A stretch of DNA of 52,020 nucleotides from positions 1 through 52,020 of IMG/VR virus record IMGVR_UViG_3300034375_010259, one strand, 5' to 3'. Within the stretch, counting starts at the first letter, position 1; each line of letters begins with the position of its first letter. The notes beneath the pieces were generated by a model. It was not told the DNA's origin, searched no databases, and was given only the letters and a program-made list of their open reading frames with translations. The DNA comes from a virus. Lineage: Duplodnaviria; Caudoviricetes. Shown piece by piece: positions 34,129 to 52,020 of the stretch. Both the position numbers and the translations under genes were made by a program.

Positions 34129-34252
34129 TTTGAGCCTCCTTCTTAGCTTCTTTTATTTGCTTATTTAGTTTTTTTACTTTCAACTCATACATAATACTTT
34201 TAACCGCACTTTTAATTATATGAACAATGTGATCAATTAACAACTTTATCAT
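34055..34252 (-). CDS. hypothetical amphipathic/coiled-coil protein
   Basis: Coupled to the polA stop; overlaps the next gene by 74 bp. Confidence 0.5.
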   Translation of the reverse strand: MIKLLIDHIVHIIKSAVKSIMYELKVKKLNKQIKEAKKEAQNAEENSNKLRDDFMSDLQSYRDDK

Positions 34253-36459: not shown

Positions 36460-36475
36460 CTAAACCTCTAATTAA

Positions 36476-36823: not shown

Positions 36824-36831
36824 ATTTACTC

Positions 36832-37020
36832 CTATTGCGGTTTCCCGCTATCTCTCTCGGCATTATTGCCTTGAGATTCGATCAAAACTATTTCATTTGT
36901 TGCACGATCCATCATCTTTTTAAGGAATCTATCCTTATAAAAAACTCCATCAGGATTATGATATAATTTATTATAAATATCCAATAACTGCACCAAATCA
37001 CTTTTTCTCATATTTTTCAT
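36832..37020 (-). CDS. hypothetical protein
   Basis: GAGG RBS; fills the gap in the replication operon. Confidence 0.6.
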   Translation of the reverse strand: MKNMRKSDLVQLLDIYNKLYHNPDGVFYKDRFLKKMMDRATNEIVLIESQGNNAERDSGKPQ

Positions 37021-37021
37021 A

Positions 37022-37840: not shown

Positions 37841-39198
37841 TACTTTTTTCCTTTTGTTTTTTTCTCATGTATATGCAATCTCCACACCCTAACACCATCC
37901 TCCGTAGTATTTTTTACCGAGAAAACTTCAGGATATTTTTTCATCAATTCTAAAAACTTACCTCTACCGATTCTAAAGCTGTAGCCAAATTGCTCTTTAA
38001 CTTGATCAGCAGCCTCCCAAATCTCATAATTTTTACCACTATTAATCTCACAAAATCTAAATATGAACCAATCCTCCCATTCCTTTAAAGAGCTAGATCG
38101 GACTTCTTCAGTTCGTTTTGAAACAAAAACCTTTAACATTTCTTTTTCGTCTACATGATAATGCCATAAAAAAGAAGCCAAACTCTTTATATTCTCAGGA
38201 GCAAATAAGCTTTGAATCTCTTCCGGAGTAAAAACTGTAGTAAGCTTTTTATCAGTCAATTCAATAATACTAAATCGCCTATCATCAGCAGTAAGAGAAA
38301 TAGAATCCATGTTATTTGATGATATGTAAAAATTAGCATAATTCTTAATTTCCTTAGCATCTACACCTTTCTGCTCAATCTCTAAATAGTCATTAACCAC
38401 CAACTTTATCCGATCCTCTTCTTCTTTGTTTTTTATACTTATTTCATCACAATAAACCAATCTTTTGTTCGCTATCTGAGAATTAAAAGTCCCTTTAAAC
38501 ATTCTATCTCCGCCAGAGTAGAAATTAGAGGCTCCAAACAATTCTCTCATAATCCCACCTAGAACACCCTTTCCAATTCCTTGTTTGCCTATAGTAGCCA
38601 AGATACAATAATTACGACTTCTCAAGCCATTTGCCAGCCATTGAATTAGATAATTGTATGAAGTCTTATCCTTATTGACTAAATGCATGAAAAACCGACG
38701 GTACAAGTTTTGAAATTCTAACTCTTTTGGCACTTCCAGATTCCCTTCCGAAAAAAAACAATCCTGAAACCAGAAAGGCGGCTGGTACGTATTAAAACTA
38801 TAAGTATCGTCATCATTTTTTATTAACATCCCGTAATCATAAGGTCGATACTCATACTCGCACGTAATAATCTTATTTTTGATATTGCACCTACGATCAA
38901 AAAGCTCCACTAATCGAGATCTATGAATCTTAGAAACTTGTCGAGAAACCTTATCAAGAATAGAAACCGTATTATCCTCACCCAATTGATCACAAACCAA
39001 GTCGGATCTAACTAACTTCTGAATAAGCCCGTAATTCTTATAATCAGCTACGCAATCCTCAATAATGTCGGCAAGAACTTCCGAACTGACAGACTTATAC
39101 TGCGCTTCCAATCTTTTCTGAATTTGATTATGGTTATTTCCAAATCTAATCAAAGTTTCACATTCCGTCTTTATTTCTCTAATTTCCTTACTATCCAT
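37840..39198 (-). CDS. D5-like / SF3 primase-associated helicase (DUF5906-type NTPase)
   Basis: Walker A GKQGIGKG, Walker B VYCDE, IEQKGVD, ISSNN, DDRRF; ATG at 39198 after GGGAG. Confidence 0.85.
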   Translation of the reverse strand: MDSKEIREIKTECETLIRFGNNHNQIQKRLEAQYKSVSSEVLADIIEDCVADYKNYGLIQKLVRSDLVCDQLGEDNTVSILDKVSRQVSKIHRSRLVELFDRRCNIKNKIITCEYEYRPYDYGMLIKNDDDTYSFNTYQPPFWFQDCFFSEGNLEVPKELEFQNLYRRFFMHLVNKDKTSYNYLIQWLANGLRSRNYCILATIGKQGIGKGVLGGIMRELFGASNFYSGGDRMFKGTFNSQIANKRLVYCDEISIKNKEEEDRIKLVVNDYLEIEQKGVDAKEIKNYANFYISSNNMDSISLTADDRRFSIIELTDKKLTTVFTPEEIQSLFAPENIKSLASFLWHYHVDEKEMLKVFVSKRTEEVRSSSLKEWEDWFIFRFCEINSGKNYEIWEAADQVKEQFGYSFRIGRGKFLELMKKYPEVFSVKNTTEDGVRVWRLHIHEKKTKGKK

Positions 39199-40126
39199 TG
39201 ATTTCTCCCGCTCTGATCTTTTTATTATATCCATGATCAACACCGATACACAACTTATGCTCGGGATAACCTACACTAATCAACTTCGGAAAAACACGCT
39301 CCCATAGAACCTGTAAAAGGACTTCTTTACTTACTTTCGTATAATCTATACATTGGACCGTCAACTTAAAAATTTCTCGATACATGCCATCAGGACGTGC
39401 CCAATCGACATATCTGAGTCTATTTTTAAGAAACACAGGACAATGTTGCCAAAACTCTTCTACATCCTCAACCTGGACCTCTGCCTCAAACTTCTTAACA
39501 GGATTAAAAGAAATAGAAGGACATGAATCTAATATCAAATTAAACGCCTGAGCGGTCAACCGATCCCCCAAATAAACCAATTCCTGAATAACTCCATTTC
39601 TTTCAAATCCAGGAAATCTTGAAAGCCTTGAAGGATTCTGACAAGAGTAATCAACGAACTTCTCGCCTTTATCTCCATCTAGCAGCTCTGAAGCCTTTAA
39701 ATCGATTTTAGCAGCCAATCTACGCCACACATGCTTATAGTACTGAATACCGTCTAACGTGTGAACAGCGGCATTTAAAGGCTTCTCAAGGCTAACTATG
39801 GCATGATACGATTTACCGCCTGAATACACGATAGAAGTAAACGGAATGCCACATTCTTTAAAAATCCTTAATTGATCTTTTAAATCAATATTATCCATTT
39901 CAAATAAAAAATTCCTATAAGAGCAAACATTAATATCAGCTCGCGAAGGAAATCGACTATCTTTGTCCTGAACATAAGATTTGTACGGATCTAATGCATT
40001 TATGCAGAAAAACTCTGGAACGGCACTACCAATTTTCAATGCGTTACGAACCTTGGTCTGGTAAATACCCCCAAAAGTAGTGCAATTTCCCTGTACGAAC
40101 AAGGTACTCATAAACGTATTTTTCAT
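39191..40126 (-). CDS. AEP-superfamily primase (RepB'/prim-pol-like)
   Basis: NFLFEMD, VYSGGKSYHAIV, VD.SCQNPSRLSRFPG. Confidence 0.85.
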   Translation of the reverse strand: MKNTFMSTLFVQGNCTTFGGIYQTKVRNALKIGSAVPEFFCINALDPYKSYVQDKDSRFPSRADINVCSYRNFLFEMDNIDLKDQLRIFKECGIPFTSIVYSGGKSYHAIVSLEKPLNAAVHTLDGIQYYKHVWRRLAAKIDLKASELLDGDKGEKFVDYSCQNPSRLSRFPGFERNGVIQELVYLGDRLTAQAFNLILDSCPSISFNPVKKFEAEVQVEDVEEFWQHCPVFLKNRLRYVDWARPDGMYREIFKLTVQCIDYTKVSKEVLLQVLWERVFPKLISVGYPEHKLCIGVDHGYNKKIRAGEING

Positions 40127-40140
40127 AACTTACCTCCGAA

Positions 40141-40440
40141 CCTTTTGTTCAAAATTTTTCTGTACGCACTTAAATTCATGAAATCACTAAGGAGTGCAAC
40201 TCGTACAGATTTTCTCTCAGTTCCCCCACGCATATTTTATTATTCCCTACCTTATATGTTTTTTTTTATTAGTCTTTTTCAGTACTCTTTAAGTACTTTA
40301 CTAGTCTATACTAGTCTATATTATTTCTACAGTCAACTTAAGATTTCTCTGTACTTCTGTACTTATTAAGTTCTTCTTTAGTTTCAAGAACTTACACCTC
40401 AAGGGTGGGATATGATTCCTTGTACGTACAGGACCTTCTA
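40141..40440. other. candidate replication origin / control region
   Basis: ~300-bp non-coding AT-rich gap upstream of primase; hairpin at 40159-40209; two inverted IHF-like motifs; CTAGTCTATA x2. Confidence 0.4.
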
Positions 40441-40719
40441 TCATGATTTATCATGGGTCTCTTTTTCTTTTCTAATTCTATCAAAAAACTCTAATTCTTC
40501 CCTACTATGTCTTCGAGTTTTCGCTTTAAAATCCGTCCAAATGACATCTCCGTCACCTTTATGGAAATTCCTTAAATAATACAAATAATTTCTAATTGCC
40601 TTCAACTTCTTCTCGTCTTCAGAAGTCTTAACAAGTCCTTCACCAGCCTTCACTCGCCTACCTCCATTTCTAATTGCCCAAAAAAGCCTTAAAATCCAAT
40701 CCCATAAAACCGACAACAT
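40441..40719 (-). CDS. hypothetical protein
   Basis: GGAAGG RBS; ORF in the early arm. Confidence 0.6.
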   Translation of the reverse strand: MLSVLWDWILRLFWAIRNGGRRVKAGEGLVKTSEDEKKLKAIRNYLYYLRNFHKGDGDVIWTDFKAKTRRHSREELEFFDRIRKEKETHDKS

Positions 40720-40741
40720 TAAAACCTTCCAAGTCTATAAA

Positions 40742-40960
40742 TTATTCATCATCATCTTCACCTAATAACGATTTCGAAGCCTTATGAAGCTCATAAGCAT
40801 TCTTAAAAAGTCTAAGCATATATAAGTCATACTCAGCAATAACCTCAAAGTAATCCGACTCTTCAAAAGTCCAAACTATAAAATTAGTGTCCAAGCTAAA
40901 ACCGATCCCTACATTTTCCTCGTCTTCAAAACCTTTCATGAAATCATTATACAACGCCAT
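40742..40960 (-). CDS. hypothetical acidic protein
   Basis: AAGGAG RBS. Confidence 0.7.
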   Translation of the reverse strand: MALYNDFMKGFEDEENVGIGFSLDTNFIVWTFEESDYFEVIAEYDLYMLRLFKNAYELHKASKSLLGEDDDE

Positions 40961-40971
40961 AAAAGCTCCTT

Positions 40972-41301
40972 TTAAGCGTTAATCTGATATAAAAAGTCCA
41001 AAAAGTCTTCCGAAGCTTCCAAGTACTTTTCCGCCTGCCGAAGCCTTTTAATATTCCCTATCATAATCCAATCATCCCGTAAAATGCTCCCAAAGTACAA
41101 AGCACCAATCTCAACATGAACCTTACCGTTTCGAAAAAAGGCTACACCGTCCACGCTATACTGCGCTCCATCAACTTCAAACTGATAATCGTTTATATCC
41201 ATTTCCTTATTTTCCAATAAAGAATATTCCCCCGAATCATCATGATTCATGTACTCATAAAACAACTCTTCATAATCAGATCTTACTTTAATTTTTCTCA
41301 T
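40972..41301 (-). CDS. hypothetical acidic protein
   Basis: AAGGAG RBS. Confidence 0.7.
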   Translation of the reverse strand: MRKIKVRSDYEELFYEYMNHDDSGEYSLLENKEMDINDYQFEVDGAQYSVDGVAFFRNGKVHVEIGALYFGSILRDDWIMIGNIKRLRQAEKYLEASEDFLDFLYQINA

Positions 41302-41310
41302 TTTAAACTC

Positions 41311-41385
41311 CTTAAGCCTTCAAAAGTCTTCTCAAGCCTACCATACTTAAGCCTTCAAAAGCCTTCTCCAGTCTACCACACTTAA
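41311..41385. repeat. 35-bp intergenic tandem duplication
   Basis: CTTAAGCCTTCAAAAG(T/C)CTTCTC(A/C)AG(C/T)CTACCA(T/C)A x2 plus CTTAA. Confidence 0.85.
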
Positions 41386-41666
41386 CCCCTTTTGACAACC
41401 CTTTTTTTGCCTTTTCCAATATTTTTCCCAGCCTTATAATGCTCCAAAAGCCTTAAAAAGTCCTCAAAAGCCTCCCACTTAACGTAATAACCACAATGAT
41501 CACATGTCTCTTTATCCACACTTTCGGCGCCTACCAACGGCTTCCTCGACCTATAATGCGGTTCCATACCTTTATGGCATGAACAAGTAGCTATATACTC
41601 TACACCTCTAAAGATCTTCCTAGTTCCACTAAGTTCCTTAAAATTATTCATCTCCATTCCTTCCAA
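41382..41666 (-). CDS. hypothetical protein with Cys/His (zinc-ribbon-like) motif
   Basis: CSCH..CDHCG; exact start uncertain. Confidence 0.6.
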   Translation of the reverse strand: MEGMEMNNFKELSGTRKIFRGVEYIATCSCHKGMEPHYRSRKPLVGAESVDKETCDHCGYYVKWEAFEDFLRLLEHYKAGKNIGKGKKRVVKRG

Positions 41667-41677
41667 GCCTTAAACTA

Positions 41678-42061
41678 TTAATGTTTGATTTTTTTCCCAG
41701 CATCCATGATTTTCTGCACTTCCAGATCTTCCAAATCTTCAAAATCTTTTCCACTCGAACCTTTAAGACTTAAAGATTTAGAACTAGAACCCTTATAATC
41801 TTCAACAGTCTTCAAAAGCACTTCAAAAGCCTTTTCCGCAAATTTACTAGCTGTAGAAGTCTTCAAAACTCCCATCTTTAAAGCTGTAGCTATGATACTC
41901 ACGGCTACAGAGATTAATATCCCAGGAACTTCCTTTAGCATCAATGCCGCATTTTCACTCGACTCTAGTAAGTCATCAGTTTCGGATGCATAAGATTCCT
42001 CCATTAAATCAACAATGGCATCTCTATACTCTTTTCCTTTTTCGGATAGTTTAATTCTCAT
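41678..42061 (-). CDS. hypothetical protein
   Basis: ATG at 42061 after AAAGGAG; the ORF-track TTG start lies in a repeat. Confidence 0.65.
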   Translation of the reverse strand: MRIKLSEKGKEYRDAIVDLMEESYASETDDLLESSENAALMLKEVPGILISVAVSIIATALKMGVLKTSTASKFAEKAFEVLLKTVEDYKGSSSKSLSLKGSSGKDFEDLEDLEVQKIMDAGKKIKH

Positions 42062-42094
42062 CTTTTCTCCTTTATGGTTTAGTGGTCTTTTGTA

Positions 42095-42175
42095 GACCGT
42101 CAATAGCTTTTTAGCTTTTTAGCTTTTTAGCTTTTTAGCTTTTTAGCTTTTAGCTTTTTAATTTTTAGCTTTAAA
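42095..42175. repeat. GACCGTCAATAGCTTT element plus (AGCTTTTT)n array
   Basis: Exact 16-mer followed by about 8 octamer units. Confidence 0.9.
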
Positions 42176-42176
42176 A

Positions 42177-42356
42177 CTAATCATCATCATGATCATGCAA
42201 ATACCTATCAATACAAGTTTTCACATCCTCCACCGTGTAATTGGTTTCCTCGCAATCCTCCACCATGAGTTCATACCTATACTCATCAGCAGCCTTCATC
42301 ATTTTCACGCCTACAGAAGTCGCTAAAAGCACACTTAAAACCGCCACCAAAATCAT
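42177..42356 (-). CDS. small membrane-anchored / secreted protein
   Basis: GGGAG RBS; hydrophobic N-terminus; two Cys. Confidence 0.6.
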   Translation of the reverse strand: MILVAVLSVLLATSVGVKMMKAADEYRYELMVEDCEETNYTVEDVKTCIDRYLHDHDDD

Positions 42357-42357
42357 G

Positions 42358-42555
42358 TTATCTCCCTTTGTATTTCTTAATCGCATTTAAAATTACCTCA
42401 TAAATATTAACGGTCAATAAAACCCCCATCATGATTAAAAACCCAAAAACACTCGCAACAAACTCCACTACAAACGCCATCAACCTAAAAACACCTTCCG
42501 CCAATTCCTTTAAAGTTTCTACAAATTCCTTCAAAGTCTCTAAAAAATCCTTCAT
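42358..42555 (-). CDS. small membrane protein
   Basis: AAGGAGG RBS; long hydrophobic segment. Confidence 0.65.
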   Translation of the reverse strand: MKDFLETLKEFVETLKELAEGVFRLMAFVVEFVASVFGFLIMMGVLLTVNIYEVILNAIKKYKGR

Positions 42556-42587
42556 AGTTCCTCCTTTTAAACTTATTAACCTTTAAA

Positions 42588-43178
42588 TCAATTAACTATA
42601 TAATACATCAATTCCATGTATTCATCAAGCAATTTCCCATTATACTCATCAATAAACTTAATCGGATCTACCTGAACCCCATCAACAATCACCTCAAAAT
42701 GTAAATGCGGTCCCGTCGTTTTCCCCGTATTTCCTGACAAACCAACCGGCTCGTAATCCAATAGTATGTCTCCTTTCTCGACTTTAAAAGAACTCAAATG
42801 CGCATACAAAGTCTTAAACCCATCATGCCGCACAATCACATAATTTCCAAACCCAGACTCAAACCCTACAAACTCCACCACGCCCTTTTGAATCGAAATC
42901 ACTTCCTCCCCTTCCCGAACTGCAAAATCAACTCCTTTATGCATCCTAGATCCATTCCCCAAATCGCGAAGCCCATACGGAGAAGACATGACTCCTCTAA
43001 CAGGCATTCGAAGAAACTTCCTAGGAACTTCAATCCTTTTAGGCTTCCTTTGCAAATCATGCTTTTCAATTAACAACTGCTTCTTACGCTCTTTCAAAGC
43101 CTGCAAAGTACTTACATCAGTCGTACTACAGCCTACAAACAATAAAAGGCTTCCAAAGACTACAAAACTATTTCCCAC
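42588..43178 (-). CDS. M23-family peptidoglycan endopeptidase, predicted lipoprotein
   Basis: SSPYGLR, MHKGVDF, YAHLS, GNTGKTTGPHLHFEV; lipobox FVGC after a GTG start at 43178 with AGGAG RBS. Confidence 0.9.
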   Translation of the reverse strand: MGNSFVVFGSLLLFVGCSTTDVSTLQALKERKKQLLIEKHDLQRKPKRIEVPRKFLRMPVRGVMSSPYGLRDLGNGSRMHKGVDFAVREGEEVISIQKGVVEFVGFESGFGNYVIVRHDGFKTLYAHLSSFKVEKGDILLDYEPVGLSGNTGKTTGPHLHFEVIVDGVQVDPIKFIDEYNGKLLDEYMELMYYIVN

Positions 43179-43188
43179 TTTTAAACTC

Positions 43189-43671
43189 CTATTTCCTAAC
43201 ACCGTACCAAGTAGGCTCACGCACATCATGATCCCATCTTACGGCTAAATATAACTGATAAGCTTTAGTAACATCCTTTATATGCTTAAAATCAACTCCA
43301 ACAGACTTATTAGCGGCACAATTAGCAAAAGGCGTCAAACTCCCTTCGGGAATCATAAACTCATGATCCTTAAAAACATCCAACAACCTACTAGACTTGT
43401 GAACCTTACCATACCTGAAAGTATACTCATCACTTAAAGCCTTAAAATGCCTTAAAAGCCATTGAAAGTTTTCCCTAGTTTCCCTAGCCCACACACTACT
43501 TGGGTGATTCTTATGAGTCATTTTGTAGATGCCATCACCCTCATAACCATGAACTCTTAAAGCCGTACTAAGCATTTGAGCAGTTTCTAAAACCATTTTC
43601 AGCGCTCTCTTGTCATCTAAAAATTTAGCACATTCTATTGGACATTCGGATGTAAAAAATATATTCATCAC
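43189..43671 (-). CDS. pyrimidine-dimer DNA glycosylase (endonuclease V-like)
   Basis: MNIFF..P..CA..LDDK...KMVLETAQMLST, THKNHPSSVWAR, EYTFRYGKVHKS. Confidence 0.85.
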   Translation of the reverse strand: MMNIFFTSECPIECAKFLDDKRALKMVLETAQMLSTALRVHGYEGDGIYKMTHKNHPSSVWARETRENFQWLLRHFKALSDEYTFRYGKVHKSSRLLDVFKDHEFMIPEGSLTPFANCAANKSVGVDFKHIKDVTKAYQLYLAVRWDHDVREPTWYGVRK

Positions 43672-43694
43672 ATGACTCCTTTTGGGTTTATTAA

Positions 43695-43723
43695 ATTGTA
43701 CCGTACTTTTAGGGGATTTGCAA
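43695..43723 (-). promoter_or_regulatory. sigma70-type promoter
   Basis: TTGCAA-17bp-TACAAT on the - strand, with an A-rich UP element. Confidence 0.7.
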
Positions 43724-43767
43724 GACTTTTTTTGATTTTTTAGATTTATAGATTTATAGACTTAACC

Positions 43768-43817
43768 GACCGTCAATAGCTTTCAGCTAATAAATTCCAA
43801 CTAATAAATTCCAGCTA
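43768..43817. repeat. GACCGTCAATAGCTTT element with adjacent short tandem repeats
   Basis: Exact 16-mer at 43768; CTAATAAATTCCA x2 follows; TAGATTTA repeats precede. Confidence 0.85.
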
Positions 43818-43895
43818 TTCTCCAGCTTCAAATATGTCCAGCAGGATCATTATTACAGCCAATGCAACTAATAGCATTAATAATAAGTTAATCAT
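43815..43895 (-). CDS. 26-aa single-TM microprotein
   Basis: GAGGG RBS; MINLLLMLLVALAVIMILLDIFEAGE. Confidence 0.45.
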   Translation of the reverse strand: MINLLLMLLVALAVIMILLDIFEAGE

Positions 43896-43905
43896 CAGTA
43901 TTCCC

Positions 43906-44193
43906 TCAGTCTTGCGTCTTTATTAATTCATTATATAACATACAATCTAATGAGTAGATAATCATTTCTTCATTATTAAAATAAATTGCACTTCCTAAAA
44001 CGTAGCCTTTATCGTTATTAATATCAGCGCCTTTTTCTATTAAATATTTAACAATATCAAAATGTCCATTAAAGGCTGCAATTCCTAAAGCCCAATCATG
44101 GTTAGCATTAGCTCCATTTTTAACTGCTAATTTTACCATTTCGAGTTGATTAATTTCAATGCCGAGTGTTAGTATTTTTTGCCAATCAATCAT
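43906..44193 (-). CDS. ankyrin-repeat protein
   Basis: LEMVKLAVKNGANAN, ALGIAAFNGHFDIVKYLIEKGADIN. Confidence 0.9.
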   Translation of the reverse strand: MIDWQKILTLGIEINQLEMVKLAVKNGANANHDWALGIAAFNGHFDIVKYLIEKGADINNDKGYVLGSAIYFNNEEMIIYSLDCMLYNELIKTQD

Positions 44194-44395
44194 TGATGCC
44201 GCCTTTTTGTTGCTTCAAAGTTCTCCTAACAATAACCATAGAAGCTGGCACAATTAACTCCCCACCATCAGGCAATCTAAGCAACATTAAATTATTAACA
44301 CTATCATAATACTTCATCTCTTTCAAAGGTGCCCACATCGTTCTTCCCAAGGCTGGTATTATATAGTATTGTTCATATTCCGGTTTATTTTTCAT
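44186..44395 (-). CDS. hypothetical protein
   Basis: TAAGGAG RBS. Confidence 0.65.
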   Translation of the reverse strand: MKNKPEYEQYYIIPALGRTMWAPLKEMKYYDSVNNLMLLRLPDGGELIVPASMVIVRRTLKQQKGGIND

Positions 44396-44422
44396 TATTA
44401 ACTCCTTAAAATTATATCACTA

Positions 44423-44659
44423 TTAATTATTAATCTCTTTATAATACTCATCAAGCCAATCCAGTTCGGTAATGTGCAATTGTCTCTCTAATAACTTTTC
44501 GTACAATTTATATGTGTTGCTTAATTTCTCCCTGTATTCCTCAGTGTATAGATCCTGCTGGGTGGATACCATTACGTAGTCGAGTAGTAAGTCCTTGACT
44601 TCATTAAGTAATTTTACTTTTTCGTTGTTGTTCATTAGTAATACTTCCTTTTTATTCAT
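44423..44659 (-). CDS. hypothetical protein
   Basis: GAGGT RBS right after a promoter. Confidence 0.65.
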   Translation of the reverse strand: MNKKEVLLMNNNEKVKLLNEVKDLLLDYVMVSTQQDLYTEEYREKLSNTYKLYEKLLERQLHITELDWLDEYYKEINN

Positions 44660-44688
44660 TATTGTTACCTCAATGTTGCGTCAATGAT

Positions 44689-44717
44689 AGAGTATCATGC
44701 AAAAATGTTGATGTCAA
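44689..44717 (-). promoter_or_regulatory. sigma70-type promoter
   Basis: TTGACA-17bp-TACTCT with TG extension. Confidence 0.75.
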
Positions 44718-44761
44718 GTATTTTTTGAGTTTTTTAGGAATTTATGCCAATTTTATTGAAT

Positions 44762-45061
44762 TTAAACAGATTTAAGTGAACACCATTTCAAATGATGATT
44801 TGGAAACGAAGTATGCTTGGCTGCGCAATCGCAATTTTTCGGTATTGGTGGCGGCTCATTGACGACATCCTTATTTATAAACATCCAATAATAACTAGAG
44901 TCGTATGTCATCTCTCTAAAAGCGTATAAATCGCTTAAAATAGTGACCATCTTCCCGTCAACATGAATTACCTTACCTTTATCCATATTACTTGCGCCGG
45001 TATATATTTCTATTTCACATCCAATCAGGGATTTATTTACGGTATGTATAAATTGGTTCAT
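44762..45061 (-). CDS. hypothetical protein: SH3/KOW-like N-domain plus CxC..H..WC tail
   Basis: IGCEIEIY..KGKVI; CDCAAKHTSFPNHHLKWC. Confidence 0.65.
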   Translation of the reverse strand: MNQFIHTVNKSLIGCEIEIYTGASNMDKGKVIHVDGKMVTILSDLYAFREMTYDSSYYWMFINKDVVNEPPPIPKNCDCAAKHTSFPNHHLKWCSLKSV

Positions 45062-45524
45062 CAACAATTCTCCTTAGTTTTGCGTCTTTGAGTAATTTTA
45101 CGATTTCGGTATGTTTCATTACGAGAAGCCCATTTAATGCTTGATCATTCTTAGCATGAATATTAGCTCCATGTTCTAATAACAGTTTTACGATTTCAGT
45201 ATGTCCATAATCAGAAGCCAATCTTAATGCTTCATCATTCCAAGCATGAACATTAGCTTCTTTTTCCAATAACAGTTTTACAGTTTTAGTATGACCATTT
45301 TTAGAAGCTCGTCTTAATGCTTGATCATTCTCAGCATGAACGTCAGCACCATAGTCTAATAACAGTTTTACGATTTCAGTACGTCCATTACGAGAAGCCC
45401 ATCTTAATACATAATCATTCCCAGCATGAACGTCAGCACCATGTTCTAATAACAATTTTACTATTTCAATGTGACCAAAATAAGAAGCCCATGTTAATGC
45501 TTGATTTAATTGGTTTTGTGTCAT
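45033..45524 (-). CDS. ankyrin-repeat protein (about five 31-aa repeats)
   Basis: ALxWASxNGHxEIVKLLLEHGADVHAxND repeats; near-identical 93-bp DNA units. Confidence 0.95.
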   Translation of the reverse strand: MTQNQLNQALTWASYFGHIEIVKLLLEHGADVHAGNDYVLRWASRNGRTEIVKLLLDYGADVHAENDQALRRASKNGHTKTVKLLLEKEANVHAWNDEALRLASDYGHTEIVKLLLEHGANIHAKNDQALNGLLVMKHTEIVKLLKDAKLRRIVDEPIYTYRK

Positions 45525-45604
45525 CAACAATTCTCCTCAATGTTGCGTCTTCTTTTCCGGGCAAAATTATTACGTTCTAGGTACTCTATAAAATCTTTTT
45601 TCAT
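45524..45604 (-). CDS. 26-aa leader ORF translationally coupled to the ankyrin gene
   Basis: MKKDFIEYLERNNFARKRRRNIEENC ending in a TGATG overlap. Confidence 0.35.
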   Translation of the reverse strand: MKKDFIEYLERNNFARKRRRNIEENC

Positions 45605-45676
45605 TATTTTTGACCTTCTCAGTTCCTTATCTATCAGTATAGCAGATATGGGTTGTCAACAGTACGTTAATCATTT

Positions 45677-46693
45677 TTATTTCCTTAAAGTTTTGACCAT
45701 TTCTTCTGCAATTCTTTCAATAACTGGAACAGCTACGGAATTTCCAAATTGCTTATAAGCTTGTGTATCTGATACAGGTATTATAAAACTTTCAGGAAAT
45801 CCTTGTAATCTAGCGCATTCTCTGGGCGTTAATTTCCTAGGTCTTTTATTAATATCTGATTGATCTATTAAAATTTCGCTACCATCTTTTCCATACCTAG
45901 CACTAATAGTATTCGTGTACTCAGAATCTTTATTGAATAAAGAATATCCAAACCCATTGCCCTTCTGTTTATGACTCTCTTTTCTTCTTTGATGACCATT
46001 CCATAGCTTTTCAGAGAGAGTGTATTTATCATCCACATTTTGCTCTAAAATATTTCCAACTTTTGTAGGGGTTTTACAAGGCTCAGGAAAGTTAAAATTA
46101 TCATTAAAATTGAAATTTAAAGGAAATTGACTCTTATCAAATCCAATAATATAAATTCTTTCCCTATTTTGTGGTACTCCGAAGTCAGCAGCTCTTAGTA
46201 CTTTAAATTCAACATGATAATTTAACATTGTGAGAATTTCAAGGATGGTATTTAAAGTCTTTCCTTTATTGTGACCTTTTAATTGTTTCACATTTTCTAG
46301 TAAAAATGCCTTTGGTCTTTTATGTTTTATAATGTCTTGGATATAAAAAAATAGTGTTCCTCTAGTATCTTCAAATCCTTTTTTTAATCCTGCTTGAGAA
46401 AATGGCTGACACGGAAATCCTGCCAGTAAAATGTCGTGGTTAGGTATTTCCTCCATAGATATCTTTGTTATGTCTCCATGAGGCATTTTTCCATAATTAG
46501 CCTTATAAGTCTCTTGAGCAAATTTATCCCATTCAGATGTAAATACACATAATCCTTTATGTTTTTCAAAGCCTAATCTCATTCCACCTATACCAGCAAA
46601 AAGATCAATAAATGAATAATTATTGTCAATGTTAGCATTAGCACCTTTTTCAGAGGATCGTTTTAATGCTTTATTTAATTCTTTTTGTGTCAT
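45677..46693 (-). CDS. dcm: DNA (cytosine-5)-methyltransferase, SsoII/NlaX/Dcm-like (predicted CCNGG or CCWGG)
   Basis: FIDLFAGIGG, AGFPCQPFS, LLENV, PQNRERIY, YTNTISARYGKDGSEILI, QFGNSV. Confidence 0.95.
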   Translation of the reverse strand: MTQKELNKALKRSSEKGANANIDNNYSFIDLFAGIGGMRLGFEKHKGLCVFTSEWDKFAQETYKANYGKMPHGDITKISMEEIPNHDILLAGFPCQPFSQAGLKKGFEDTRGTLFFYIQDIIKHKRPKAFLLENVKQLKGHNKGKTLNTILEILTMLNYHVEFKVLRAADFGVPQNRERIYIIGFDKSQFPLNFNFNDNFNFPEPCKTPTKVGNILEQNVDDKYTLSEKLWNGHQRRKESHKQKGNGFGYSLFNKDSEYTNTISARYGKDGSEILIDQSDINKRPRKLTPRECARLQGFPESFIIPVSDTQAYKQFGNSVAVPVIERIAEEMVKTLRK

Positions 46694-46713
46694 CAACAAT
46701 TCTCCTCAGTGAT

Positions 46714-46977
46714 TCAATTATTAATACTAAAATCGATGTACTTTTGGCTCATTCGCCACCTTTTGCTGACACCGATCTTACCGTTAATTATATAATACCA
46801 ATCAATAAATGTCAATACCCCACCTTTCGAGGCGGCAAAATAGCAGTTTGGATGGTCGTCAAAAGGTCCGGTACCGCGTTTAAAGTACTTATAATAAGTA
46901 ATAGACTCGCCCTTAGCTCGTTTCTCTTGAAAGTAAAACGGTTTATCCGATTCTATGCATTCCTGTAAACTCGCCAC
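46714..46977 (-). CDS. hypothetical protein
   Basis: GTG start after GGAG; 87 aa. Confidence 0.55.
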   Translation of the reverse strand: MASLQECIESDKPFYFQEKRAKGESITYYKYFKRGTGPFDDHPNCYFAASKGGVLTFIDWYYIINGKIGVSKRWRMSQKYIDFSINN

Positions 46978-46979
46978 TA

Positions 46980-47219
46980 CTAAATCTCCGTATCCCCTGC
47001 ATGAGTGTTGTAGAAGTCTTCGATCTTATTCCGTTTATCAATGCAATGGGAAGCCAAAGTAGAATTTAAATTCGCGGCAAAATAAATAGACATGATATGA
47101 TACATCTCCCCAATGGGTAAATTATTCATTGACGCAAATTCAGCAATCGAATGATCTATACCTTTTAAGTCTTTCTTGCCTTTTTCTACGTGTTCAATTA
47201 AGTATTTAGTTACATCCAT
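46980..47219 (-). CDS. hypothetical protein
   Basis: TAAGGA RBS. Confidence 0.65.
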   Translation of the reverse strand: MDVTKYLIEHVEKGKKDLKGIDHSIAEFASMNNLPIGEMYHIMSIYFAANLNSTLASHCIDKRNKIEDFYNTHAGDTEI

Positions 47220-47251
47220 AATAGTTCCTTAGTGTTGTTTTAAATCTTTCA

Positions 47252-47467
47252 TTACAAATCCTTATCAGTTTCTTCAACCATACTCTTAAAATCATCAAAC
47301 AAGTCATCTACGATCTGATCATACGCATAAGACTCGCCATTTATCGAACAATAATCAACGCTATCCAAGACTGCATAACTTAAAACATCCGCCATCCCTT
47401 TTTTAATCTCTATTAGGTCTTCAGAAGCTAATAAATCTTTTAAAATCTTCAAAGTCTCTGGTTTCAT
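47252..47467 (-). CDS. hypothetical acidic protein
   Basis: GGGAGGT RBS after a promoter. Confidence 0.7.
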   Translation of the reverse strand: MKPETLKILKDLLASEDLIEIKKGMADVLSYAVLDSVDYCSINGESYAYDQIVDDLFDDFKSMVEETDKDL

Positions 47468-47497
47468 TTTTACCTCCCTTAAAGTTTCTTATACTTT

Positions 47498-47526
47498 ATA
47501 GTACAGGAAATCGTTTTAAAATGCAA
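47498..47526 (-). promoter_or_regulatory. sigma70-type promoter
   Basis: TTGCAT-17bp-TACTAT. Confidence 0.65.
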
Positions 47527-47603
47527 TCTTTTTGATAAAAAAAGTCTAAAAAATCCGCAAGTAGCTAACCCACCGAAATCACATGACTCGCGGAGCCTTC
47601 AAA

Positions 47604-47822
47604 CTATTCCTCCTTAGAAGTCTTCGTGCCATAAAAAAACACCGGACTGCTACCGTCCTCATATTCCTCAACTGCACTCGGATAATGTATCAAAACCCAT
47701 TGATGCGTCAACGCTAAAATCTCCCCCATCTACAACCCATGATCGTGAGCCATTTCCATAAGCACATTTTCATGATCCAATAAAACATCTCCCATTTTTC
47801 GAACTTTTAAGCTTTTACTCAT
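47604..47822 (-). pseudogene. 72-codon gene interrupted by an in-frame amber (TAG) at codon 31
   Basis: MSKSLKVRKMGDVLLDHENVLMEMAHDHGL*MGEILALTHQWVLIHYPSAVEEYEDGSSPVFFYGTKTSKEE; AAGGAG RBS. Confidence 0.6.
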
Positions 47823-48438
47823 TTGAACTCTCCTTTTTAGTTATAGCTCTATCAAAGTCTATCATATCCTTCAAAACATTATTCTTATACCTATCATCCT
47901 TCTCCGGATGCGTAAACTGATATTCAGCTAGCATAGCCAAATTACACAAAGCGTGCCACAAATGCGGCTTCCCCGACTCCGAATCCAGATCTTCCCCACC
48001 GTTAAATTTATACAAATGCCTTAAAGCACAATTAATAACCTTCGACCAGTCCATGCCCTTTCTCCAATTCTGGTCCGGATATTTACCACCATGCTTTTCG
48101 CTGTTCGCCATCAGTACGGAAGCGATCGCATATATTGCGGCTTCAGGGCATTGCGTCAGTTCAATTTTTCCGTCATTGAAGCGCAATCCCTCAGTGTTTC
48201 CAATATTGCCAATATTGCTGTCAATGTTGCTATCAATGTTGGATTTTTGTTGTGGTTGTTGATGGAACAATTCAATGTCTTGATTTTCTAAAATTCTGCC
48301 ATCCAAAGTAAATCGACTATGTCCAGTAACATCAAACCTAACTTTTATAGGATATTTTTCAAAGAAATTTATTTCAACAACCTTTCCTTTTTGATCTCTA
48401 AATCTAACCAAGTCGCCAGCCTTAAATTCTCTACTCAT
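47815..48438 (-). CDS. dATP/dGTP diphosphohydrolase-domain (DUF5664-like) protein with N-terminal SH3/KOW-like domain
   Basis: GLRFNDGK, KY..NWRKG, ALRHL, EDLDSESGKPHLWHALCNL. Confidence 0.85.
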   Translation of the reverse strand: MSREFKAGDLVRFRDQKGKVVEINFFEKYPIKVRFDVTGHSRFTLDGRILENQDIELFHQQPQQKSNIDSNIDSNIGNIGNTEGLRFNDGKIELTQCPEAAIYAIASVLMANSEKHGGKYPDQNWRKGMDWSKVINCALRHLYKFNGGEDLDSESGKPHLWHALCNLAMLAEYQFTHPEKDDRYKNNVLKDMIDFDRAITKKESSNE

Positions 48439-48463
48439 CTAAAACTCCTTATAAACTTAAAAA

Positions 48464-48715
48464 CTAATCAATACTTTCCTGCACTAATCTTTTCTTTAAA
48501 AGCAAAAAATTCCTATGCTTTTCAAACTGTCTTTTGATCCATGGTGTCATGTTATGTTTAGAATTTATGGATCTTTTCAACCATTCAAGCATTTTACGGT
48601 CCATTTCAGCCAAAGAAAGTTCTCCATTAAGCCTTAAACGGACTAACTTAGCCCAATAAGTCTCATACCGTTCTTCCCAATACTTTAAAGCTTCCGCATC
48701 CTTAAAAGTCTTCAA
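48464..48715 (-). CDS. hypothetical protein
   Basis: GGGGAGG RBS; TTGA overlap with the upstream gene. Confidence 0.65.
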   Translation of the reverse strand: MKTFKDAEALKYWEERYETYWAKLVRLRLNGELSLAEMDRKMLEWLKRSINSKHNMTPWIKRQFEKHRNFLLLKKRLVQESID

Positions 48716-49032
48716 AAGTCCTCCCCCGTTTTCAAATCCTTAGTCTTCAAATCTTTAATCTTCAAATCATTAAGCCTTTTAAACCTATTAACGGTCATCA
48801 AAGACTTCCCATTCCCATCACTCGGCAAATAACAATAAGCTCTATATTCTTGAAAGCCTGTCTTAACTAACCTAGCCAAACAATACTTTTCACCATATAG
48901 ATTTTTACAACCTTTAGAAGCCGTCAATAGGTTTTCTGTATCCGTATCATTCCAAGGCAAACTCGACTTATTAACTCGAACAGCCTCCGGACATACAGAC
49001 ATGATTAATAGTGCAGTAATCAGAAAATTCAC
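48712..49032 (-). CDS. secreted Cys-containing hypothetical protein
   Basis: Hydrophobic N-terminus; 4 Cys; GTG start after AAGGA. Confidence 0.6.
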   Translation of the reverse strand: MNFLITALLIMSVCPEAVRVNKSSLPWNDTDTENLLTASKGCKNLYGEKYCLARLVKTGFQEYRAYCYLPSDGNGKSLMTVNRFKRLNDLKIKDLKTKDLKTGEDF

Positions 49033-49043
49033 TTATAGTCCTT

Positions 49044-49595
49044 TTAAGGCTTGTTCGGGTTTTGTTGCCCATTAGCGTTTCCATTACCGTTGCCAGGGCT
49101 TTGTTGACCGTCATTGCCTTCACTGCCGTCAGTAGCTCCACCGCCTTCAGTACCGTCAGTAGCTTCATTGCCATTAGACTGTGAGTCTAAAAAATCCGTT
49201 AAATTATCAATACAATTCTGCTGATCCGCTTCCTCCGTGTACTGATCCTCGCAAAAACTTACAACGCCTTCCAAGTTAAGGGAAACTTCCGAGTCAAAAA
49301 AGCCTAACGCAGCCATAAAGCAATCATTACTCTCTTCCGTACCTTCACCAAACCGTCGATCGCATGTATCAGATACTTTATCGAAATCCATGACAAACTC
49401 TACCGGATCTGCATTGACCTGAATATCTTCAAATTCTACTTTGTCTATAGTAAGCCGACTTTCGCCTTGATTGGCTACGGTAATCTTTTCCGGAGTTCCG
49501 GAGATCTTGTGTTTAATACCACATGACGAGAATCCTAAAGCGGCTACGCCAATAAGCATGATTTTCATTTGTAATTTTTTAGTTTTTAAGTTCAT
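49044..49595 (-). CDS. lipoprotein with Cys pairs and Gly/Asn/Asp low-complexity tail
   Basis: Lipobox FSSC; two C-x10/11-C pairs; ATDG(T/S)EG repeats. Confidence 0.75.
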   Translation of the reverse strand: MNLKTKKLQMKIMLIGVAALGFSSCGIKHKISGTPEKITVANQGESRLTIDKVEFEDIQVNADPVEFVMDFDKVSDTCDRRFGEGTEESNDCFMAALGFFDSEVSLNLEGVVSFCEDQYTEEADQQNCIDNLTDFLDSQSNGNEATDGTEGGGATDGSEGNDGQQSPGNGNGNANGQQNPNKP

Positions 49596-49616
49596 TTTAA
49601 CTCCTTGGTAGGTTAT

Positions 49617-49645
49617 AGATTAGCAGATTTTTCAGGAGTTGTCAA
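49617..49645 (-). promoter_or_regulatory. sigma70-type promoter
   Basis: TTGACA-17bp-TAATCT with TG extension. Confidence 0.75.
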
Positions 49646-49653
49646 CTGTTTTT

Positions 49654-49796
49654 TAGGCTTTTTGGGCTTTTTTGGGCTTTTTTAGGCTTGGATGACCGTC
49701 AATAGCTTTTAAGCTTTAGTGACCGTCAATAGCTTTTAAGCTTTAGTGACCGTCAATAGCTTCTAAGCTTTATAGCTTTTAAACTTTACTTCTTCC
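49654..49796. repeat. three tandem 27-bp units (GACCGTCAATAGCTTTTAAGCTTTAGT) preceded by GGCTTTTT repeats
   Basis: Units start at 49694, 49721 and 49748. Confidence 0.95.
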
Positions 49797-50196
49797 TAGG
49801 ATTCTTATGAGTATAATCTTTCGATTCAAACATCGGACACCAATCATAATGCTGGCTCGGATTGGCTTTCGGATACAACTTCAAAACTCCACAAACGCAT
49901 TTAGACTTCAACGGCTTTGAATCTGGACTGTAGTCTCCAAAGTCTAATAGTCTTTCAAATTCATCCAGTAATTCGTCATCCCCCATGCGTTGGTAGACTT
50001 GATAACTCTGAAAAAGTATCCACATTGGAAGTCCGTTGTCAGGCTGTACTTGTATCGAAGCTCCCGATTTGTTTATAACTTTGCCTTGCATGACTTTCTG
50101 GACGCTATTAAAGATTTGAACATAATCCCCAATGCTTATTTTGTCCATGTCCAGGATAAACTTAAACTTTGATTGTACAGAACTATAATTATTCAT
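49786..50196 (-). CDS. hypothetical protein: SH3/KOW-like N-domain plus CxC..H..WC tail
   Basis: IGDYVQIF..QGKVI; CVCG..HYDWCP. Confidence 0.7.
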   Translation of the reverse strand: MNNYSSVQSKFKFILDMDKISIGDYVQIFNSVQKVMQGKVINKSGASIQVQPDNGLPMWILFQSYQVYQRMGDDELLDEFERLLDFGDYSPDSKPLKSKCVCGVLKLYPKANPSQHYDWCPMFESKDYTHKNPRKK

Positions 50197-50211
50197 TTAT
50201 GTCCTTTTTAG

Positions 50212-50317
50212 GCTTTAGTGACCGTCAATAGCTTTTAAGCTTTATAGCTTTTAAGCTTTATAGCTTTTAAGCTTTATAGCTTTTAAGCTTTATAGTTTTT
50301 AAACTTTACTTCTTTCC
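50212..50317. repeat. GACCGTCAATAGCTTT element plus four 16-bp units (GCTTTTAAGCTTTATA)
   Basis: Direct-repeat counterpart of 49740-49793. Confidence 0.95.
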
Positions 50318-50432
50318 AATTGGCGTTTTCATTAAACACAACGCTGGCTTAACAGGATATAAAATATCTCCCACAGTCATTTTGTTATCACAAACCACAT
50401 CATTAAAATACCCTTTACAAGTATTTAATATA

Positions 50433-50792
50433 TTACAACCCTACGTCTAATAAAACAAGATAAACTTTCTTACCATCATGATGCACTATCGAAGGAAACC
50501 CGTAAAGAGTTTGAAACTCCTTCCACTGCTTACCAGTCTTCGGAAGCTCTACTTGCTTTTCCAGGTCGTAATTATCTAACAACTCCTTTTCAAGTTCATC
50601 ACAAGCCGTATGCATTTCTCTACTTTTTTGATCCAACTCTTCTCTGGTTATCTCACCTTTTTTAAATCTTGTATATTCTTTCTGGTAATCATTACTAATA
50701 AGATCAAATCTTTCACGCCATTGCTCATTATAATCTTGATTATCAGCACCCTCTATAGGTCTTCCTGATTGTCTTTGTAAGGTTACTCTCAT
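50433..50792 (-). CDS. hypothetical protein
   Basis: AAGGAG RBS; ATGA overlap. Confidence 0.7.
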   Translation of the reverse strand: MRVTLQRQSGRPIEGADNQDYNEQWRERFDLISNDYQKEYTRFKKGEITREELDQKSREMHTACDELEKELLDNYDLEKQVELPKTGKQWKEFQTLYGFPSIVHHDGKKVYLVLLDVGL

Positions 50793-51055
50793 TTTAACTC
50801 CTTGGAAGTTTTTAATCGGTAGTAAATCATTACCGAAATGAATAAAATATTCGCCATGTAATTATATAGCAAGGGATTGATTCCAAAAACTTTTAAAGTA
50901 TAAACAAAAGCTAGAATCTCCCCTAAATACCATGGTACTAGCAAAGCCCACGGCACTGTACATTTTTTTGTTATGAAACATGATATAGTCTCTGGAAGTC
51001 CGCAAAAGGCTAGTAAAGCCGATCCAAGCCATCCAATAGTCTCAATTAGCTCCAT
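50789..51055 (-). CDS. PQ-loop / SemiSWEET-like 3-TM membrane protein
   Basis: IGWLGSALLAFCGLPE (PQ-loop position), three hydrophobic helices, PLLYNY..N; ATG at 51055. Confidence 0.7.
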   Translation of the reverse strand: MELIETIGWLGSALLAFCGLPETISCFITKKCTVPWALLVPWYLGEILAFVYTLKVFGINPLLYNYMANILFISVMIYYRLKTSKELK

Positions 51056-51224
51056 AAGGCGCTCCCATTTTTTTATACTCTTGAATATGCCTTTCCACTG
51101 ATTGCTCATTTTTCTTTATTAGTTCTGTAATGACCGTTCCTAGCTTTTTTCCTGGCAATAATAGGACTGTAGTGACCGTAAGTAGCAAAATACCCAAAAA
51201 CAGCTTATCATTTTTCTTTTTCAT
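51042..51224 (-). CDS. small membrane-anchored protein
   Basis: GGGAG RBS; basic N-terminus plus a TM segment. Confidence 0.55.
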   Translation of the reverse strand: MKKKNDKLFLGILLLTVTTVLLLPGKKLGTVITELIKKNEQSVERHIQEYKKMGAPYGAN

Positions 51225-51351
51225 AAGCGCTCCCAATAAGCTTCGCTAATAGACATGACCCTAGTAGCTTAAAAATTTAAAATCTAAATACCAAGTTCTT
51301 CTTCAAAAATAATCATTAAAACAAAAACCACAATAAGTATAATCTTTATCA

Positions 51352-51594
51352 CTATTTCTCCTTTGCGCTATTAAGCATTTCTTCAAAATAAACATCCCAA
51401 CACATCTCATCAAAAAACTCTTCATTAAACCAATCTACATCATCATGATGAAAATACTCTCCACAATACTTATCATACTTAAACTCATCCCACAACTCGT
51501 TTAATCTATCATCGTTTTCAAACTGCCAAGCTTCAAAGTCTTTTTCCAAAACTTCAAATTCTTCTTTTGTCAGTTTCTTTAAAATTGAGTTCAT
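51352..51594 (-). CDS. highly acidic first early protein (DNA-mimic candidate)
   Basis: AAGGAG RBS after a strong promoter; Asp/Glu- and aromatic-rich, 80 aa. Confidence 0.7.
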   Translation of the reverse strand: MNSILKKLTKEEFEVLEKDFEAWQFENDDRLNELWDEFKYDKYCGEYFHHDDVDWFNEEFFDEMCWDVYFEEMLNSAKEK

Positions 51595-51613
51595 TAAAAT
51601 TCTCCTTTTTAAA

Positions 51614-51642
51614 ATCTTAACATTTTATAAATTACTTGTCAA
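51614..51642 (-). promoter_or_regulatory. sigma70-type early promoter
   Basis: TTGACA-17bp-TAAGAT with TG extension and an AT-rich UP element. Confidence 0.8.
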
Positions 51643-51717
51643 TTATTTTTAAAAAAGTTTTCCAGGAATTTTAGCCTTTTTTATTTGTTGGAGGGAAGAT
51701 TCAATAATTTTTGTTTA

Positions 51718-51789
51718 TAAACAACTTTTATTAACTAAACAACTTTTATTGACTAAACAACTTTTATTGACTAAACAGAAATTATTGAC
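51718..51789. repeat. four tandem 18-bp units (TAAACAACTTTTATTGAC)
   Basis: Units start at 51718, 51736, 51754 and 51772 (last degenerate). Confidence 0.9.
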
Positions 51790-51886
51790 GAAAGTCGAAA
51801 AAAATTGCTTATAATGATAACCATCAATATTTTTTATTTATGACCCAATAATTTTTGTCTTTTTTTTATCATAACTAATTAAAATA

Positions 51887-51916
51887 ATAGTAACATACTA
51901 TATAAATTGTTGTCAA
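51887..51916 (-). promoter_or_regulatory. sigma70-type promoter
   Basis: TTGACA-18bp-TACTAT. Confidence 0.55.
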
Positions 51917-52020
51917 CTAGAATCTGTTTATCCAATAAATTCAGGGACTTATAACTTTTTTTTCTTTACTGTTTTTTTTCTTGACCGATTTTGATTAGAT
52001 TTAATTAAGAATTCAGCATT

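Follow-up and report, generated by a model that had tools for sequence, protein, structure and literature searches.

The window analysed here, a DNA stretch of 52,020 bp that makes up the whole IMG/VR virus record IMGVR_UViG_3300034375_010259 (estimated completeness 98%), is a near-complete 52-kb genome of a podovirus-like phage from freshwater metagenomes. Its structural genes (terminase, portal, major head protein and SU10-type adaptor) lie on the plus strand, and its early and replication genes (PolA, RecE-like exonuclease and primase-helicase) on the minus strand. On the minus strand there is an island that consists of a C5 cytosine DNA methyltransferase, two ankyrin-repeat genes (ank1 and ank2) and small open reading frames (ORFs), and the gene junctions of this island share a short motif composed of a stop codon, a ribosome-binding site and a start codon (copies A to E in Table 1; all island coordinates refer to the minus strand). 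An earlier note on this DNA had taken the motif as the linker of an integrase-free, integron-like array of plug-in genes. Our analysis suggests that the motif is the boundary of tandem ankyrin-repeat genes, onto which other genes were later grafted. The island, whole or in part, is present in 20 public runs belonging to 14 studies. Most of the runs are freshwater metagenomes, and there are also marine and estuary runs of 2024. Apart from the methylase and the ankyrin genes, no ORF of the island matched a family in Pfam or PHROGs.

Table 1. Genes and repeat copies of the island, with positions in the window.
Feature	Position	Strand	Description
C5 cytosine DNA methyltransferase	45677-46693	-	338 aa; PF00145, E 8.8e-114, profile positions 1-324 of 324
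Putative ankyrin-derived leader	46625-46693	-	First ~23 codons of the methyltransferase ORF
Tail of the methylase module	45552-45676	-	TTGACA-containing promoter-like stretch and 26-codon ORF (45524-45604)
ank1	45033-45524	-	163 aa; five 90-nt ankyrin repeats; Ank_2, E 5.5e-41
ORF99	44762-45061	-	Start from ankyrin junction; no family match (Pfam, PHROGs)
ORF78	44423-44659	-	Behind promoter-like site and copy D; no family match
ORF69	44186-44395	-	No family match
ank2	43906-44193	-	95 aa; diverged ankyrin gene; Ank_4, E 2.4e-14; 36-44% identical to ank1
Putative 26-codon hydrophobic ORF	43815-43895	-	Started by linker E; read from sequence
Linker copy A	46690-46708	-	Ribosome site, 8-nt spacer and ATG; methyltransferase ATG at 46693
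Linker copy B	45521-45551	-	Full junction; ank1 ATG at 45524
Linker copy C	45058-45088	-	ank1 3' end, then ribosome site and ATG of ORF99 at 45061
Linker copy D	44668-44684	-	5' half alone, between promoter-like site and ORF78 (ATG 44659)
Linker copy E	43892-43920	-	Diverged full junction behind ank2; starts 26-aa ORF, ATG 43895

The five copies reported in the earlier note were all found where it had placed them, each at a gene start, and the repeats were confirmed to be real and non-random. The 19-mer TGAGGAGAATTGTTGATGA occurs exactly at 46690-46708 (A) and 45521-45539 (B) and with one mismatch at 45058-45076 (C); when up to 3 mismatches were allowed these were the only 3 matches in the whole window, where 0.02 were expected, and none of 100 shuffles reached 3. 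The 5' half, AAGACGCAAnnnTGAGG, has four matches in the window (0.35 expected; 0/100 shuffles reached 4), without mismatch at 45535-45551 and 43904-43920, with one at 45072-45088 and with two at 44668-44684. Copies B and C are identical at 28/31 positions, and 44668-44682 of copy D is identical to 45535-45549 of copy B at 15/15. The homology between copies A and B is longer, 43/46 nt (46708-46663 vs 45539-45494; E 3.8e-15), and extends 27 bases past the 19-mer into coding sequence. The tail element AAGACGCAA is found exactly at 5 sites of the window, three of them at gene ends of the island and two (6683 and 14985) in unrelated contexts. A further similarity, between 45658-45685 and 43879-43906 (75% of 28 nt), fell short of E<=1 and is attributed to chance.

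Judged from their reading frames, these repeats are not free-standing linkers; each appears to be a boundary of an ankyrin-repeat gene. The boundary comprises the last codons of the upstream gene (AAGACGCAA, three bases, and TGA or TAA), the ribosome site, a spacer and the ATG, where the GGAG of the ribosome site overlaps the upstream stop and the spacer to the ATG is 8 nt. In the fullest copies, A and B, there follow ten codons from the start of the next ankyrin gene (M-T-Q-x-x-L-N-x-A-L), which are common to the methyltransferase and ank1. The element AAGACGCAA is the coding tail of ank1 and ank2, and when read in frame with the ATG that comes next, copies B, C and E give K-T-Q-x-stop; ank2 ends K-T-Q-D-stop inside linker E, and the ank1 ORF, the repeats of which are 78-80% alike, passes through linker C into ORF99. 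Upstream of copy B the frame is open for 9 codons only, suggesting that it is the remnant of a lost ankyrin gene. Copy A lacks the AAGACGCAA half, since ORF87, which precedes it, does not belong to the ankyrin genes. Nor does the TGA within copy A terminate the upstream ORF, whose end is at 46714. The earlier note was right that the repeat supplies the ribosome-binding site and the ATG of the next gene, and in the case of the methylase even a leader peptide is handed to a foreign gene.

The methyltransferase itself is a chimera. Its match to PF00145, which begins at residue 26, includes the region around FxGxG and the PC motif, with invariant columns in common with 13 homologs. The bacterial methylases, among the best 120 listed, are 65-74% identical to it and mostly 380-430 aa long, and most of these 120 carry an N-terminal helix-turn-helix (HTH; PF01381, HTH_3) that is absent from the phage methylase. 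In two pairwise comparisons the alignment of a homolog with the phage methylase starts at residue 13 or 26. An identical methylase protein is encoded on 12 contigs, of which the longest measures 55,067 nt. The leader before this point matches the ankyrin genes at the nucleotide level, at 43/46 nt of the ank1 start, 24/29 nt of ank1 repeat 3 and 18/20 nt of ank2; the ORF thus reads as ~23 ankyrin codons followed by an HTH-less methylase. Behind the methylase gene, the 26-codon ORF of the module tail ends in TGATG on the ank1 start, and the TTGACA-containing stretch got no score in a consensus promoter scan. The right edge of the methylase replacement is at 45551/45552, that is, at the 5' edge of copy B. 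No restriction partner was found in the island, the neighbouring ORFs had no nuclease family match, and PF00145 was the sole restriction-modification (R-M) component found. The counter-defence role that the earlier note proposed for the cargo is reasonable for this orphan methylase only; the other ORFs have no family match.

Natural variants of the locus were seen in assembled Logan contigs of four runs (X9, X10, X12 and X14) over 41500-49500. X9 and X10 had the arrangement of the window, with exact contigs covering 45247-45787 and 46463-47162. A 3,309-nt contig of X12 (depth 11.6) agrees with the window, apart from 19 differences, between 49500 and 46663; it then skips the methylase and goes on in ankyrin repeats (aligned to 45403-45155, 41 differences). 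The methylase is also skipped in a 1,105-nt contig of X14, which goes from 46663 to 45313 with 9 letters shared at the joint and 26 differences in 152. At both joints the leader continues in frame, on the minus strand, into the ankyrin repeat. The methylase is thus present or absent among variants that are near-identical in their flanks, and the methylase-less contigs come from two independent runs. We gave no weight on their own to the uncovered bins of X12 (45505-46572) and the low cover of X14 in the same place.

Other contigs of these runs bear on the two ends of ank1. A second X12 contig (3,063 nt) matches 42122-45114 with 4 differences, indicating that the genes downstream of ank1 are unchanged and in the same order. 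In X12 a 2-nt insertion at 45090 makes ank1 stop at a TAA inside linker C, and contig 17 of X14 also has this insertion, as a loose end. The last ank1 repeat of the window (45115-45133) contains two compensating 1-nt indels (45133 and 45115) that scramble 6 residues; both are missing from the X12 contigs, suggesting that the ank1 of the window may be decaying. A contig of X14 with a depth of 5.64 has, immediately ahead of 45551, the first base of linker B, the 3' end of an ankyrin repeat and 7 further letters (joint 45551->45366), and it joins ankyrin repeats in another order (45492 to 45133). Taken together, the contigs suggest that the methylase-less phages have an ankyrin gene at linker A and that, in X14, an ankyrin-to-ankyrin junction stands at linker B.

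In the variants one side of the exchange falls after leader codon 10, and the opposite side inside the ankyrin repeats. The exchange points are thus in ankyrin coding homology, outside the 19-mer core, and the left crossover is 30 nt inside the leader. Joints between two linker copies (e.g., 46663->45493) were not found in the contigs of the 4 runs, which drop rare forms. The earlier idea that genes are gained and lost at the linker accordingly stands in part: the content behind linker A does differ among near-identical variants, but in X12 the region downstream of 45114 keeps the same genes in the same order, and the exchange is not at the core of the motif.

The repeats are probably explained by ankyrin gene boundaries together with genes grafted to them by general or short-homology recombination. 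The early region would once have contained head-to-tail ankyrin-repeat genes, from which the repeated boundaries came, and unrelated or foreign genes would later have been joined to these boundaries by such recombination. Ankyrin gene bodies would have been replaced in this process, while the incoming genes would keep the ribosome site and the ATG of the boundary and, in the case of the methylase, also the leader. A bacterial-type C5 methyltransferase would have lost its own N-terminal HTH and become fused in frame behind ~23 ankyrin codons, its module (45552 to ~46625) taking the place of the upstream ankyrin gene's body as far as the AAGACGCAA tail at 45551. A methylase-less allele persists in natural populations, with the same start opening an ankyrin ORF and linker B standing behind an ankyrin 3' end. 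The ancestral state was likely a tandem ankyrin pair, one body of which was replaced by the methylase in the lineage of the window. The repeats and how far they extend, the chimeric makeup of the methylase and its presence or absence in nature are direct observations; we infer this direction of the event, as well as the arrival of ORF99 and ORF78 in the same way and the recombination pathway, perhaps the phage's RecE-like system; the RecE-like exonuclease that the earlier note had pointed out is indeed encoded, at 37022-37840 (phrog_412, E 5e-54).

If copies A and B had been made by the insertion of the methylase itself, as a long target duplication, no prior tandem ankyrin pair would be needed. 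The methylase module does lie between 46-nt direct repeats (43/46), and in X12 and X14 the methylase-less contigs agree with copy A as far as 46663. This is similar to the R-M inserts described by Furuta, Abe and Kobayashi (2010, PMC2853133), which are flanked by 46-bp repeats of 43-45/46 identity; there, too, the insert stands between direct repeats of more than 30 bp and a related genome is without it. However, the first criterion in that text is the presence of both the R and the M genes, and here the M gene is alone. Copy B in X14 stands behind an ankyrin 3' end and hence was not made by the insertion, although this junction has a 31-nt side and X14 may hold both haplotypes; the downstream repeat thus seems to pre-exist as an ankyrin-ankyrin junction, a point on which the locus differs from the duplications of that text. 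The AAGACGCAA tail is on copy B and not on copy A, the sequence past the repeat is a diverged ankyrin allele, which points to a replacement rather than a clean insertion, and copies C, D and E are left unexplained. We consider an origin by target duplication quite improbable.

Several observations weigh against the explanation by ankyrin boundaries and grafted genes. The contigs are assembled, not raw reads, and break inside the repeats, and the number of ankyrin genes in the variants hangs on the one contig with the 31-nt side at the linker-B junction. The ankyrin part past the joint differs by 16-17% from the window and was aligned to different repeats in X12 and X14, so that the variants are not simple deletion products; their alleles have diverged, and the direction of change is deduced. 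ORF99 has ~11 nt past ATGA in common with the ankyrin start, and no more, and the ankyrin-helix-like stretch of ORF78 (44607-44637) is weak (25/31, E 0.3). MAFFT puts the first residues of the methylase leader under the HTH helix of the bacterial methylases; an HTH origin of the leader was rejected because its nucleotides match ank1 and ank2, but the alignment leaves some room for a methylase origin of the first ten codons, against which the nucleotide matches to ank1 speak. Conservation is higher in the 9-mer tail and the ribosome-site core than in the adjoining ankyrin bodies: the ank1 and ank2 proteins are just 36-44% identical, yet AAGACGCAAnnnTGAGG is exact in both. In copies B, D and E the homology ends sharply 5' of AAGACGCAA. 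Such sharp edges and a conserved core are not predicted by a simple ancient duplication, and a junction conserved in this way needs an added constraint, gene conversion or repeated crossovers there.

This conservation and these sharp edges keep alive the reading that the ankyrin-derived junction is a recurrent hot spot of homologous recombination, at which genes are swapped in a translation-ready form. The junction would then be comparable, at the level of translation signals, to the promoter-early stem-loop (PeSL) of T4-type phages (Arbiol et al. 2010, PMC2839356; Comeau et al. 2014, PMC4122927), in which a strong sigma-70-like early promoter is combined with a terminator stem-loop. These two reports document gene shuffling mediated by PeSLs, with insertions, deletions and replacements between close relatives. 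A further mark of PeSLs is the mini-circles that arise when neighbouring copies recombine. The conservation of the junction beyond that of the flanking genes, its sharp 5' edges, the at least three different non-ankyrin genes behind its copies and the RecE-like exonuclease of the phage are consistent with a hot spot, as is the natural polymorphism of the methylase module, the right edge of which coincides exactly with the 5' edge of copy B. On the other hand, just this one polymorphism was seen, its crossovers are in the ankyrin leader and the ankyrin repeats, the genes from 42122 to 45114 are the same and in the same order in X12, no linker-to-linker joint was found in the contigs of the four runs (in which rare forms are dropped), and no linker with matching flanks was found in the other contigs scanned. 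We regard a recurrent hot spot as rather unlikely. If the junction is nevertheless a recurrent crossover point, the PeSL idea would extend beyond T4-type phages and from transcription to translation signals.

As in the PeSL system described in those reports, short conserved motifs are repeated here between non-essential genes of a variable region, and the island is hyperplastic in that the one relative found shares replication genes but no island ORF. The motif of the island, though, is without the promoter and the stem-loop that define a PeSL there; it is a translation-start boundary from a gene family. As to the edges of the indels, the right edge of the methylase module is at the motif edge (45551/45552), whereas the left crossover is 30 nt into the leader and the others are in ankyrin repeats. 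A stronger form of the idea is that the ankyrin boundary was co-opted as a portable, translation-ready linker, behind whose short leader the RecE-like system repeatedly captures foreign genes in frame. This would give the captured genes instant early expression, would be a translation-level counterpart of PeSL cassettes and would account for the higher conservation of the 31-mer relative to its neighbouring genes; we hold it to be an unlikely proposal.

The conserved core could also have been kept by selection as a translational operator or coupling signal (e.g., a repressor site), with no part for duplication. The core is identical at 19/19 and 18/19 positions, as compared with 84-90% in the adjoining coding sequence, and covers the ribosome site and the start codon. 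This is an exceedingly improbable account, because the genome has no more than three copies, each associated with an ankyrin remnant, they have no shared structure, and the homology runs on into the coding sequence as a duplication would give.

A dedicated, integrase-free cassette system with its own insertion mechanism, as originally proposed, is very unlikely. Integron cassettes form arrays located beside the gene of the IntI tyrosine recombinase, and their attC sites are imperfect inverted repeats that fold as hairpins. The island resembles them as an array of small genes with a motif repeated between them at five boundaries. As to different cassettes at the same sites in relatives, a single module was seen, the methylase, which near-identical variants either have or lack. 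No tyrosine or serine recombinase or integrase family was matched among the translations of 59 distinct ORFs (50 scanned with Pfam, 30 with PHROGs), and there is neither IntI nor a single promoterless array driven by a Pc promoter. None of the 5 copies showed a hairpin when folded within a 61-nt stretch with the copy in its middle (z -0.72 to +1.29 vs shuffles), nor did they have a common fold, and Rfam gave 0 matches at E<=1 in 43000-47500. The island has promoter-like sites of its own; upstream of copy A there is a perfect TTGACA-17-TATAAT (46815-46787), and in a site scan of the island no promoter-like or terminator-like site coincided with the 31-mers. The exchange points are in coding homology, and the scans of IMG/VR and metagenome contigs gave no copy of the motif with the same flanks. 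Moreover, the repeats are fully accounted for as 3'-end, ribosome-site and 5'-end boundaries of tandem ankyrin genes, which is the very origin that the earlier note had set against its own proposal. The defining features of both integrons and PeSLs are thus missing.

The composition of the island had also been cited in favour of a cassette array. The island is slightly AT-richer, as claimed, with a GC content of 0.331-0.334 at 44-47 kb vs 0.349-0.381 in the adjoining 41-44 and 47-49 kb bins. Its C skew is not absent, as had been claimed, but about halved and still negative, with a GC skew of -0.15 to -0.19 vs -0.31 to -0.50 in the flanks. The strand composition of the genome is strongly asymmetric overall: the AT skew is +0.2 to +0.43 across most of the plus-strand structural genes (1-33000), and the GC skew goes down to -0.50 in the minus-strand early region (33000-52020).

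Different cargo between the same linkers in related genomes, which the earlier note had looked to for support, was not found. Exact copies of the 19-mer in IMG/VR were at 12 loci (9 of one unrelated family and 3 singletons), none of which shares the flanks, and a 22-mer was found at 19 loci in metagenome contigs, none of them related and with 0 hits of the island by blastn. These scans may not cover the records nearest the window, and the absence of close kin therefore weighs little. A megablast search of 43500-47300 against 50,697 phage records gave no match, and in a blastn search of the same region, which matched 33 records, the matches among the rows listed fall in the methylase gene. The ankyrin genes have 109 homologs (27-66% identity), among which there was no near-identical variant protein; the MTQ leader or the KTQ tail was present in 0/17 of those inspected.

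When genes in and around the island were used as seeds, the DenV-like flank gene led to 1 locus, which breaks off at this gene, the MazZ-like flank gene to 1 distant locus and ORF99 to none. The primase-helicase gave 1 relative (L018, on a 55-kb contig), which shares five replication-module proteins with the window (primase, helicase, exonuclease, polymerase and one uncharacterised ORF) at 43-56% identity. L018 has no match to any island ORF between 43906 and 47467, and of the flanking genes the MazZ-like gene alone matches, weakly (32%). In the records of L016-L018 the motif with up to 3 mismatches had one match, with 3 mismatches and inside an ORF, that was taken as chance. At 4346-6736, L018 has three tandem Imm5-like paralogs and a fourth ORF of the same size without a match. 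The paralogs are 94-97% identical over 300 nt across the junctions, and their junctions and 5' thirds are alike; their middles are variable, low-complexity and rich in Ala, Ser, Tyr and Asp. Tandem duplication with conserved junctions therefore occurs in the early region of this phage group.

We class the locus as a decayed array of tandem ankyrin genes with other genes grafted onto it, an example of known phage mosaicism and not a new cassette system. As in the tandem ankyrin arrays of phages, giant viruses and host-associated bacteria, the genes are arranged head to tail, the coding tail overlaps the next ribosome site and start, and the ends are conserved while the middles diverge; ank1 and ank2, both with Pfam Ank matches, have a common motif of tail, stop and ribosome site. 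The difference is that here two intact ankyrin genes are left in a decayed and interrupted array, and that three boundaries serve non-ankyrin genes, one of them as an in-frame fusion. The natural polymorphism illustrates a route by which a phage may domesticate a bacterial methylase, in which the enzyme loses its regulatory HTH and its catalytic part is attached to the beginning of an early gene already in place, which makes new expression signals unnecessary. It also advises caution, since motifs of stop, ribosome-binding site and start that recur in the early regions of phages can be scars left by tandem paralogs and do not necessarily point to a cassette machinery.

Some minor features of the genome were observed in addition. 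The C-terminal part of ORF99, as read from its translation, is rich in Cys and His and is possibly a small metal-binding domain. The window (1-52020) contains 0 GGCC sites, where ~81 were expected by a maximal-order Markov estimate, which suggests a strong avoidance of a GGCC-specific restriction enzyme of the host; the site covered by the methylase presumably differs from GGCC. CCGG, with 88 sites vs 111 expected, as well as GCGC, GATC and CCWGG are all near expectation, and CCCGG (2 vs 9.2 expected) and CCGGG (1 vs 4.9 expected) are low. The MazZ-like gene at 47815-48438 (minus strand) encodes a 207-aa protein with a dATP/dGTP diphosphohydrolase N-terminal domain (PF18909, E 4.9e-25; phrog_801), which we take to belong to a family known from phages with modified purines; no match to a PurZ-like family was found among the window ORFs scanned. 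Just upstream of the ORF at 41678-42103, a perfect 8-nt tandem repeat (TAGCTTTT, ~7 copies) occupies 42104-42159, and the Logan depth is raised there in 4/4 runs (bin 42034-42300), as a simple repeat would give. Among the tail genes, a 209-aa ORF at 23662-24291 (plus strand) has a weak I-HmuI NUMOD-like match (E 7e-5, under the Pfam cutoff) and may be the remnant of a homing endonuclease.

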